Assembly (NCBI GenBank): GCA_965178125.1
Contig: OZ237755.1
Coordinates: forward strand, 1-64,000
Direction: 5' to 3'
DNA from: Bilabrum cf. latius
Taxonomy: Eukaryota
DNA length: 64,000 nucleotides
Below the pieces are notes generated by a model. It ran no database searches and was not told the origin of the DNA. It saw only the letters and a program-made list of their open reading frames with translations. Each line of letters opens with the position of its first letter. Position 1 is the stretch's first letter. Both the position numbers and the translations under genes were made by a program. Shown here one piece after another: positions 45,401 through 48,391 of the stretch.

Positions 45401-46664
45401 GCAAGGGGTGGCTGTGCCGCTGCCACCTCCCACGGATGCTCTGGACGGCGGGGCGGGTCCTCTCGCGGACGCTCTGGCTGAGCAGGAGGGGGCGGAGCAG
45501 GGCGGAGGCGGGGCGGCGACTGCTGCCGCCAGCTCCATGGGGGGTGCTGCGACGGTGTCTTCTGCGGCTGGCACTAGCACGCACGTGGCCGCAGGCCGAC
45601 GGACTGCAGCCCCCTCTCACCCGGGTGTGTCTTCGGCCGACGCAGCCATGCGGGACGTCATGGGAGACATCGAGACTGGGCTCAGAGGAGATCCGGTGCC
45701 TGGGGCTGCGGGGGTTGGAAGCGGAGGTGCGTCGGCGAGCGGGTCGGGGTCTGGGTCGGGGTCTGACTCGCAAACTCGTCTGGAGTCCGGGATCAGTCTG
45801 CACGGGGGCGGGCAGCTCGTGCACGAGGGCAGGCTCCCTCGCTCGCTGGCAGAGGGAGCTGTCCTCGCCACGAGGGGCTCTCTGGTGATGCAGCGAGAGA
45901 CTACGCTCATGCGGCGGGCTGAGACAGTGACGTAGGCCCGACGGTTCGTGCAGCTGCAAAAGAGCAAGGTGTCGCTGCGCCGTCAGACTCGGGCAGCAGA
46001 GCGGGAGGTGCAGTCGATCGAGGAGCGGGCGCAGGACCTGGCCCGCCTCAAGTTCGGGAGGCAGGTTTCGCTGGATGCGCTGGACCGAGGAGACAGGGCG
46101 AGGGAGCTGCACCGCGCAGAGGCGCAGATCGGGGGCATGGAGGCGGTGCACTCCTTGCACGGCGGAGGGGTCAAGGCCAAGATCCAGCTGGCCAAGCAGC
46201 AGCTCCTGGAGCTGACCAAGGCCAACACGGATGCGCTCAAGGGAGTCAGAGAGCTAGTGCAGCAGCAGAGCCAGCTGGAGCAGCAGCTGAACCAGGGAGG
46301 CGTCGGCGCGCAGGGGATGCGGGCGGACGAGGAGAGGGAGGCCGCTGCGGGAGCAGAGCGCGAGAGGCTCCAGGCGCTGGTTCGGCAGTAGAGGCAGCAG
46401 ATGGCCCACCTGAGGGACCAGATCTCGCAGCTGAGGTACAAGTCGAGGCACCTGTACGATGCAGCGGTGGAAGCTGGGGCAGGTGGAGCGGGAGGTGGCC
46501 GCGTGATGGGCGCGAGGAGCTCGTAGGCCTCGCGAGCACATCAGCTCGCCGCTGGACCGGCTGCTGGGGGGCCCAGGCTGGCGGAGAGCAAAGAAAGAGA
46601 TGGTGCCGACGGGAGGTAGCAAGTGGAAGCTGGATTTGGAGGACTGGCCGGAAAGCACATGTAA
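39420..46664 (+). CDS. CFAP44: Cilia/flagella-associated protein CFAP44 (WDR52), ~2385 aa; intron 39622-39708
   Basis: [110 protein letters not shown]. All pieces are in one frame; ends TAA 46662. Confidence 0.93.
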
Positions 46665-46778
46665 TTAGATAGCAGCGACGTGCGTCGCCGATTCTGTGAA
46701 TTTCTTGAAAGAAAGTTCCGGGCTCGTCGCCACGTCCGTTCACGCGCCGGCCTCCTTACATACATTCTCCGAGCGACC

Positions 46779-48391
46779 ATGCAGGCGGTCATGCAGGCGT
46801 TACCCCCAACAACTTTGGGGTTCATGGCGGCATGTGTTTTGTTTTATGTCGTGGTTCAGTTTGCTTTGGAGGTGCCGCCAGGTGCAGTTGCGATTCAGCC
46901 GTACTTGGTCGCGTACGATTGGCAGATATACCGCCTGGTCACTGGGTGAGAGAGTCATGCGCTGCAAAATTTATTCGTGCAACATTGCGAAGACTGCTGC
47001 TTTGCTGAGGTGTACCGTGCTCAAGAGTGGAAACCTTCCGTACCGTTTCTTCTCGCAGCGCACTTGCGCACGGCAGCCTGATGCACATCGGAATGAATAT
47101 GATGTCACTATACTACATGGGGATATCATTGGAGTAGACATACGGCTCGGGCCCGCTCCTCGTCCTACTGACTTTCTTCACCCTGCTCGTCTCGTCGGCT
47201 TTCGTTGCTCTGTCTTGGATTGTCAGTTTTGTGGCGCCATCATGGATGATGCAATCCGCTGTTGGGTTTTCTGGAGTTCTCTTTGCGATGGCCGTGGAGG
47301 AATCAATGCTGTCCGCGGTGCCCACGAGGTCCGTTTTCGGTTTGTTCAACGTGCCTACCCGCTGGTATCCTTTGGCCCTACTTGTTATTCTGCAAGTAGT
47401 CCTGCCGGGCGTGTCGTTTACAGGCCACTTAGTTGGTTTGCTTGTTGGCCTGGCGCACGTTTCTGGCTACTTAAGATGGGCGATCCCGTCATGGCAGTCC
47501 ATGCTCTCCATCGAGGCTGCTCTGCAGCCGTGCAGACAGAGGCTCCCTCTTTTTGCCACTGCGCCACTGCGGGACCCCACGGGCCTTGAAGACGATGGGT
47601 CGGGCTAGGCTGGTGGAGGAATCGCCGCAGGAATGGCGGCCGCAACCGAAGCGGCGGGCACGGTGGGGGCATGGCTCGGCAGCGCCACTGCATGCTTGCT
47701 TGGGCTAGCGGTGGGCCAGGAGAGGGCGCAGGGGTGCGTGGGGGCAGTCAGGGGGGCGATTGAATCAGTAGCAGCTTGCTTGCGAAGACTCCCCGTGAGG
47801 TGGGGCCCGGCGGGTGCAGGTGCAGGTACAGGCGACGGCAATGCTGAGTCGGGGGTTGCGAGGGGGATGCATGCGGGCATGGCCGGCGGCCTCCAGCAGT
47901 CCAACGGGCCCTTGCCTGACAGTGGCCCTTTAGGCTCCGTCGCTGCTCGCGAGGGGGGCGGCGGGGATGCACCTGTGCGTGAGGAAGGTGTGTTTGCACC
48001 CAGTGGGGGAGGGGTAGGGAATGGGAATGGAGGGGTGCAGCAGGCTGTCAGGTCTGGTGCTCGGCTGGCCAGCGCAAGGAACAGCGTGGGGGCTGCATCT
48101 GAGGAACAGGAGGCGCTGGTGCTCGCCGAGTCTGGCATGGCTGACCTGGGCTCGTTGGGGCCCATCCGAAGTGCACCACGGGCCGATGCTGCCAGTGGGG
48201 CACGGGATGAGGGACGAGGGAATGGCCCGGGTGCAGCCCGTGGAGAAAGCCCGGGGGAGGGTGGAGGGTAGCAAGGCCGGCGGAATGCGCGGGGGTCAAG
48301 GCTGCTGGAGCAGTTCGAGAGGGAGAAGCAGGCTAAGAGGGACAGGTAGTCTCGAAGGGGCGGGGGCTCAGCAGAGGACTGGATGAGCTGA
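46779..48391 (+). CDS. Rhomboid intramembrane serine protease (RHBDD1-like); intron 46946-47058
   Basis: WQIYRLVTG|ALAHGSLMHIGMNM, catalytic AVGFSGVLFA and SFTGHLVGLLVG. TAGs in frame; ends TGA 48389. Confidence 0.9.

Follow-up and report, generated by a model that had tools for sequence, protein, structure and literature searches.

Evidence for a nuclear genetic code in Bilabrum cf. latius in which UAG is read as glutamine while UAA still terminates translation

The meanings of UAG and UAA were examined in a stretch of 64,000 nucleotides (nt) from Bilabrum cf. latius (contig OZ237755.1, positions 1 to 64,000; the whole stretch is hereafter called the window). This DNA very probably follows a nuclear code in which UAG, formerly a stop, now specifies glutamine, with UAA and UGA remaining as the only terminators, a pattern that we take to be NCBI translation table 15. 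When TAG was taken as a sense codon, long open reading frames (ORFs) matching eukaryotic families were obtained, namely Rad50, a fusion of a prolyl-hydroxylase with an N-acetylglucosamine (GlcNAc) transferase, IFT46 (E 7e-79), an ataxin-10-like protein, an IQ protein, GSK3, an EF-hand protein of 2,749 codons, CFAP44, a rhomboid protein, leucyl-tRNA synthetase (LeuRS), an RRM protein and a LYR protein. The 23 gene models contained 111 in-frame TAGs in 17,474 codons, with TAG present in 18 of the 23, including Rad50, IFT46, GSK3 and CFAP44, and the models terminated in TAA (6) or TGA (17) and never in TAG.

The amino acid was read from conserved alignment columns. The TAG in the Q-loop of Rad50 lies opposite the glutamine of the CHQDD motif in Chaetomium Rad50 (5da9). 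In the GSK3 gene, a TAG lies opposite a Q of human GSK3-beta at a position where every one of the 123 stretches aligned from the best 120 homologues has Q, and a TAG in the GlcNAc-transferase domain occupies a near-invariant column, with Q found in 196 of the 198 stretches aligned from the best 150 representatives. TAG was also exchanged with CAG or Q in relatives at 4 of 4 comparable conserved sites. In the 14 long ORFs, which comprise 15,470 codons, TAG accounted for ca. 13% of the Gln codons (97 of 753; CAG 509, CAA 147). It was absent from the 1,297 codons of LeuRS, the most codon-biased gene (GC content at third codon positions, GC3, 0.87), occurred twice in the coiled-coil gene (GC3 0.84), and was common where codon bias was weaker, as in Rad50 (15) and the IQ gene (14). 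This relation between TAG usage and codon bias is what a minor tRNA, or some remaining competition from eukaryotic release factor 1 (eRF1), might produce.

Neither TAA nor TGA accompanied the 97 TAGs of the 14 long ORFs, a census that is partly circular, the ORFs having been drawn with TAA as a stop. Because of this circularity, the count was limited to seven spans bounded by homology (CFAP44 2-2250, Rad50 17-1577, LeuRS 87-1218, GSK3 8-334, the hydroxylase/transferase 393-913, the EF-hand protein 481-1834 and ataxin-10 627-710; 7,228 codons). In frame, these spans held 43 TAG, 0 TAA and 0 TGA, and in their two remaining frames (14,442 triplets) the counts were 71, 32 and 253, respectively. 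Since TAA occurred 0 times in frame versus 32 times off frame, it is as fully removed from the coding frame as TGA; the frequency of TAG was similar in frame (0.59%) and off frame (0.49%). Were TAA a Gln codon used relative to TAG as CAA is to CAG, the expected number would be 9.5 (pooled) or 17.7 (per gene), and the Poisson probability of finding none is 7e-5 or 2e-8. A first-pass annotation of the window had claimed that no TAA lies inside a conserved frame and that the code differs from that of table 6, and these counts (TAG 43 vs TAA 0) bore out both claims. The circularity is also escaped by an ORF-free scan, in which a best-of-six-frames coding score, used in place of an over-strict score threshold, was evaluated on both flanks of each stop triplet. 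Coding signal was present on both sides of 58 of 1,027 TAG, 2 of 484 TAA and 10 of 1,540 TGA triplets; the signal at the two TAAs was weak, one of them adjoining an in-frame TGA. Among 100 TGA-to-TGA ORFs with an internal TAA, the real-frame TAAs were located at the ORF end (CFAP44 and ataxin-10-like), in introns (37484 and 39684) or upstream. Summed ORF length under alternative stop sets was dropped as a measure, as it gave no separation of the codes in GC-rich loci.

The six TAA terminators that the first-pass annotation had placed at 1501(-), 22870(+), 22869(-), 23505(-), 46662(+) and 51166(-) were all found there, and its statement that the other genes end in TGA, with TAG needed by none, agreed with the 17 TGA and 0 TAG ends of the models. 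Read-through of these TAAs to the next TGA would add 25, 51, 25, 15, 95 and 9 codons, respectively. As had been argued from the sequence, the 51 extra codons would take the ataxin-10-like ORF antisense into its neighbour, and reading TAA as Gln would carry CFAP44 in frame into the rhomboid gene, whose ATG at 46779 is in the same frame and is followed by the next TGA only at 46947. The convergent neighbour of the ataxin-10-like gene, lengthened by its 25 codons, would in turn run antisense into that gene. The Pfam model Atx10homo_assoc (positions 2-85 of 99) matched residues 627-710 of the 723 residues of the ataxin-10-like protein and runs out within a residue of its TAA, and the ends of the LeuRS and GlcNAc-transferase genes, both TGA, match homologue ends. 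The coding score dropped from 0.36 to -0.20 across TAA 51166. There was no excess of TAG before stops in the 23 genes, a number too small to speak against rare use: TAG made up 4 of 575 codons (0.70%) in the last 25, 10 of 1150 (0.87%) in the last 50 and 12 of 2216 (0.54%) in the last 100, the overall frequency being 0.64%. Inside matched domains, TAGs come to within 9-35 codons of real ends, the ataxin-10 domain holding three.

The CFAP44/rhomboid locus brings these features together (Table 1). PDB chains of CFAP44/FAP44 aligned with the CFAP44 exon from residue 2 to ca. 2250 (E 1.6e-115), and residues 2078-2250 aligned with 1970-2140 of the 2141 residues of the Chlamydomonas FAP44 chain, the end of FAP44 lying opposite residue 2250. 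Since the FAP44 homology extends to residue 2250, the TAG at 46389 lies within conserved sequence. The rhomboid ATG stands 39 codons beyond TAA 46662, and the product of this gene matched Pfam Rhomboid (E 1.9e-16), with four in-frame TAGs in exon 2.

Four public runs were aligned to positions 37001-57000. Run X1 was colinear DNA, and runs X6, X7 and X8 showed GT..AG or CT..AC joints missing from X1, including those at 39621-39707, 46945-47057 (the rhomboid intron) and 52948-53108, each of the first two being present in all three runs. Because of these splice joints that X1 lacks, X6, X7 and X8 are considered to contain spliced RNA. One contig of X6 (record 11) spans 45775-46729 with zero differing letters and ends 65 nt past TAA 46662; it is the sole contig among the pieces listed to reach the CFAP44 3' end, and it stops before the in-frame TGA 46947. 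The rhomboid contigs among the pieces listed start at ca. 46774 (X7) and ca. 46771 (X8), in two studies. These starts lie 5-8 nt before the ATG, which hints at a very short 5' leader. For the minus-strand coiled-coil gene, contigs extend past TAA 51166 to 51078 (X6) and 51125 (X8), that is, by 41-88 nt, a weak hint of its end. The TAGs at 45933, 40602, 40701 and 43260 were covered unchanged by X7 and X8 contigs, and since no run differs in any letter, TAG is not edited away in the RNA. Within CFAP44, the segment 40481-40552 was masked as a repeat, and contigs from every run break there. The long-range joints from 40435 to 51691 and from 51712 to 52185, whose short sides measure 21-22 letters, resemble artefacts of low complexity.

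Table 1 Coordinates of in-frame TAGs, TAA terminators and features of the CFAP44/rhomboid locus in the window
Feature	Position	Strand	Remarks
TAA terminator of ORF 1504-3036	1501..1503	-	4 in-frame TAG; no family match
TAG in Rad50 Q-loop	12467..12469	-	
TAG in GlcNAc-transferase domain	16131..16133	-	
Overlapping TAA terminators in TTAA	22869..22872		Convergent: ataxin-10-like gene, 22870-22872 (+); 192-codon ORF, 22869-22871 (-)
TAA terminator of IQ-motif gene	23505..23507	-	Gene 23508-26702; 14 in-frame TAG
TAG in GSK3	27851..27853	-	
Intron upstream of large CFAP44 exon	39621-39707		GT..AG joint in X6, X7 and X8
Last exon of CFAP44	39708..46661	+	2,318 codons; 13 in-frame TAG, 0 TAA, 0 TGA
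In-frame TAG, CFAP44 residue 2228	46389..46391	+	Conserved C-terminal coiled coil
In-frame TAG, CFAP44 tail	46524..46526	+	Non-conserved 68-codon tail; sense reading inferred from other TAGs
In-frame TAG, CFAP44 tail	46617..46619	+	Same non-conserved 68-codon tail
TAA terminator of CFAP44	46662..46664	+	First non-TAG in-frame stop; next in-frame TGA at 46947, 95 codons on
Spacer between CFAP44 and rhomboid	46665..46778	+	114 nt; CFAP44 3' untranslated region (UTR) and rhomboid 5' end; DNA run X1 continuous
Rhomboid gene	46779..48391	+	ATG 46779-46781; exon 1 to 46944, intron 46945-47057, exon 2 47058-48388, TGA 48389-48391
TAA terminator of coiled-coil gene	51166..51168	-	Exons 51169-52947 and 53109 upward; spliced ORF of 790 codons

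Relatives of the window were compared at the TAG sites. The protein P0304 derives from an uninterrupted standard-code ORF, is identical to the window in 503 of 514 aligned residues, and has Q opposite the TAG at 51514..51516 (-). Although its end coincides with that of the coiled-coil protein whose gene TAA 51166 terminates, P0304 was rejected as independent support for that terminator, being ca. 98% identical and a standard-code prediction. The metagenome contig L007 (1-4132) is syntenic with 52.5-56.6 kb of the window, with the coiled-coil, temptin-like and LeuRS genes in matching order at 64-78% amino-acid identity, and no contig closer than L007 was found in the metagenome scan. Five TAGs were present in its syntenic ORFs, three of them opposite a CAG of the window; of the other two, one faces an A within a low-complexity gap region and the other an R ahead of the start Met. 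The temptin-like gene of L007 ends in TGA. Three short proteins with 84-86% identity to the GlcNAc-transferase region break exactly at Q206 of the window and at the TAG of the window, as expected, because standard-code gene calling would cut at TAG codons.

The best LeuRS matches stood at 54%, and the nearest named ones were Platysulcus tardus and Bicosoecida sp. ms1. In a quick LeuRS tree (LG+G4, 35 sequences), the window fell with these two and environmental sequences into a clade of 15 rows with a Shimodaira-Hasegawa-like approximate likelihood ratio test (SH-aLRT) value of 99, sister to oomycetes plus ochrophytes in this one-gene tree with a limited outgroup. This placement is only a lead that the organism may be a heterotrophic stramenopile outside Gyrista. 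GSK3 was dropped as a taxonomic marker, its matches being too uniform across eukaryotes. The contigs L001, L003 and L004 belong to more distant members of the LeuRS clade, and no in-frame TAG was found in their longest plausible genes, which are few; the LeuRS ORF of L003 has a TAG 26 codons before TGA that may be its real stop. These few genes suggest that L001, L003 and L004 may use the standard code.

We infer that a tRNA-Gln(CUA) together with an altered eRF1 would be the basis of the code. A tRNA-Gln with the anticodon CUA, one base change from tRNA-Gln(CUG), would decode UAG, and the C34 of this anticodon would be unable to pair with the A of UAA; eRF1 would have lost recognition of UAG and retained that of UAA and UGA. 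At CFAP44, the ribosome would thus pass the UAGs at 46389, 46524 and 46617 and be released at UAA 46662, and the rhomboid gene, 117 nt downstream in the same frame, would be translated from its own short-leader mRNA. ARAGORN found no tRNA gene in the window, L007, L001 or L004 and only a tRNA-Gly in L003, and neither an Rfam match nor an eRF1 gene was found within the 64 kb.

The absence of TAA from coding frames might have another cause. If UAA and UAG were both Gln, as in the ciliate/hexamitid type of code (table 6), TAA could go unseen because a GC-rich genome avoids A-ending codons. Such codons are indeed in the minority in the 15,470 codons (CAA 147 vs CAG 509, GAA 250 vs GAG 859), and few TAAs would be expected anyway in the most biased genes (1.1 in CFAP44 and 0 in LeuRS). 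However, CAA still makes up 22% of the CAR codons (CAA and CAG), from which 9.5-17.7 TAAs were expected in the homology-bounded codons where none is present; moreover, six ORFs stop at TAA with the coding signal lost there, and CFAP44, if read through under table 6, meets no stop before the end of the listed RNA contig. We therefore regard this explanation as very improbable. An ambiguous or context-dependent code, as in Condylostoma and karyorelict ciliates, would have UAG also end some genes near their 3' end, or UAA occasionally read as sense, and CFAP44 might then end at TAG 46524. Ambiguous stop/sense codes are on record (PMC4967479; bioRxiv 10.1101/2022.04.12.488043), only 23 genes were sampled, and the CFAP44 tail past the homology has 2 TAGs in 68 codons compared with 13 in 2,318 overall. 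Such a code nevertheless appears unlikely, since no model requires TAG as its end, no TAG enrichment is seen over the final 25, 50 or 100 codons, TAGs inside matched domains come to within 9-35 codons of real ends, and neither TAA nor TGA occurs in frame.

It is also conceivable that UAG is not a true Gln codon, but encodes a different residue, as in other lineages (Leu, Glu, Lys or Ser), or reflects pseudogenes, low-level suppression or RNA editing. Some TAG columns are variable or hydrophobic (I/L/V and L in the GlcNAc-transferase domain; D, K and D in IFT46), as would be expected in that case. TAG nevertheless stands at three invariant or near-invariant Gln columns and exchanges with CAG at all four comparable sites; 18 of the 23 models carry it, and the genes are spliced and present in the RNA-like runs with no letter changed. 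These observations leave little room for such an explanation, which we consider highly unlikely.

Several points weigh against reading UAG as Gln with UAA as a stop, besides the circularity of the ORF census. The case rests on the sequence of 64 kb and on 23 gene models, six of which lack homology support (1504-3036, 22872-23447, 4037-7201, 17843-20404, 60542-61780 and 61784-64000). Many of the TAG columns are variable and, taken alone, give no indication of Gln: the Chlamydomonas IFT46 residues facing the three TAGs of IFT46 are D, K and D, human PHD2 has N at the position of one TAG, the TAGs of CFAP44 face K/T, P, R and K, and the leading residues in three other GlcNAc-transferase TAG columns are K (19 of 93), I/L/V (83 of 141) and, in the third, L (68 of 139). 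These variable columns are compatible with Gln, and the amino acid is identified only by the invariant columns and the close-relative comparisons. At CFAP44, the last 68 codons are not conserved, and TAA 46662 is the terminator only if TAG 46524 and TAG 46617 are read through. As for the runs, none of those listed is recorded as RNA; X6-X8 are RNA-like only by their spliced joints, and X6 is labelled 'probably DNA'. Where their contigs stop says little about where the RNAs stop, and beyond the pieces listed there are 188 further contig pieces and 69 loose ends.

The window is gene-dense and has 61% GC (53-70% per 2-kb window). It begins with 112 copies of CCCTAA at 1-674, followed by 11.4 copies of a 53-bp subtelomeric repeat at 677-1280; because of this array and repeat, the window is taken as the end of a eukaryotic chromosome. 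The subtelomeric repeat is only ca. 220 nt away from TAA 1501, the terminator of the first ORF. A single ORF of 991 codons at 14970-17942 (-) combines a 2OG-Fe(II) prolyl-hydroxylase domain with a GlcNAc-transferase domain, and it resembles a fusion of both Skp1-modifying enzymes. A small, secreted-looking gene at 53838-55084 (+) has five introns, exons down to 35-70 nt, no TAG and a TGA end; it looks temptin-type by eye, and its last exon has no Pfam match. LeuRS carries a Lys/Gly-rich N-terminal extension before its catalytic core (55514-55800 (+)), which is common to L007 (3049-3400). Some convergent neighbours have stops that almost touch: the TGA 38692 of a phosducin-like gene and the TGA 38710 of a minus-strand gene leave 15 nt between them, and a second close pair at 7202-7244 leaves a gap of 37 nt. 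Since convergent stops nearly touch at 22869-22872, 38692-38712 and 7202-7244, the 3' UTRs there must overlap.

UAA and UAG nearly always change meaning together, and nuclear codes that split them are few. Split codes are natural experiments on how eRF1 discriminates G from A at the third position and on how a single tRNA-Gln(CUA) captures one stop codon. A phylogenetically separate case would serve as an independent replicate for eRF1 comparison, and for the present one a chromosome end, public RNA data and metagenome relatives exist. The choice of code also bears on annotation, as the standard code would cut most genes at TAG, and table 6 would run genes through TAA, fuse CFAP44 with the rhomboid gene and overlap convergent genes. 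Full-text searches, which did not extend to most subscription journals or to supplements, found no published nuclear UAG reassignment in a stramenopile. The UAG-to-Gln/UAA-stop code of the window may have arisen independently in a non-Gyrista heterotrophic stramenopile, an origin not yet described, and be common to at least one divergent environmental relative (L007; 84-86% fragments); the reassignment would be young and still spreading, since TAG and CAG exchange even between ca. 98% identical strains. In that case, an organism with a telomere-reaching assembly would be tractable for determining how eRF1 drops UAG but keeps UAA and UGA. We put this origin forward tentatively, as a possibility rather than an expectation.

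The code type is already known from several lineages, and the window would be a further case of it. The reassignment of TAG to Gln has been named 'genetic code 15' (PMC9523058). According to PMC5304391, the fornicate Iotanema spirale reads UAG as Gln and keeps UAA as its main stop; the same source argues that a CUA anticodon, and probably an altered eRF1 as well, is required for UAG to be reassigned on its own, that C34 does not read UAA, the tRNA-Gln(CUA) of Tetrahymena reading UAG only, and that Iotanema eRF1 has T32G in the GTS motif. The window resembles Iotanema in that UAG alone is reassigned, to Gln, and UAA terminates, and the same mechanism would apply; it differs in belonging to an unrelated lineage, with its LeuRS among non-gyristan stramenopiles, and in having TGA as the commoner stop (17 of 23). 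UAG, but not UAA, is also reported to have changed to Gln in Protocruzia tuzeti and two phyllopharyngean ciliate lineages (PMC11687900). Their codon table is the same, but the window is not ciliate-like, having (CCCTAA)n telomeres, 61% GC and a LeuRS in the stramenopile grouping. Ciliate telomeres are not known to be of the TTAGGG type. Both UAR codons (UAA and UAG) are described as Gln in many ciliates, hexamitids, Ulvophyceae, Streblomastix and Amoeboaphelidium (PMC11687900). These table 6 codes share UAG = Gln with the window, presumably by way of a mutated tRNA-Gln, but UAA is also Gln there, whereas here it marks six ORF ends. UAG alone has been reported to encode Leu in Rhizaria sp. exLh and some ciliates and Ser in Scotinosphaera (PMC5304391, PMC11687900). 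In these codes, as in the window, UAG has parted from UAA in meaning and UAA still terminates; the amino acid differs, TAG being found at invariant Gln columns in the window.

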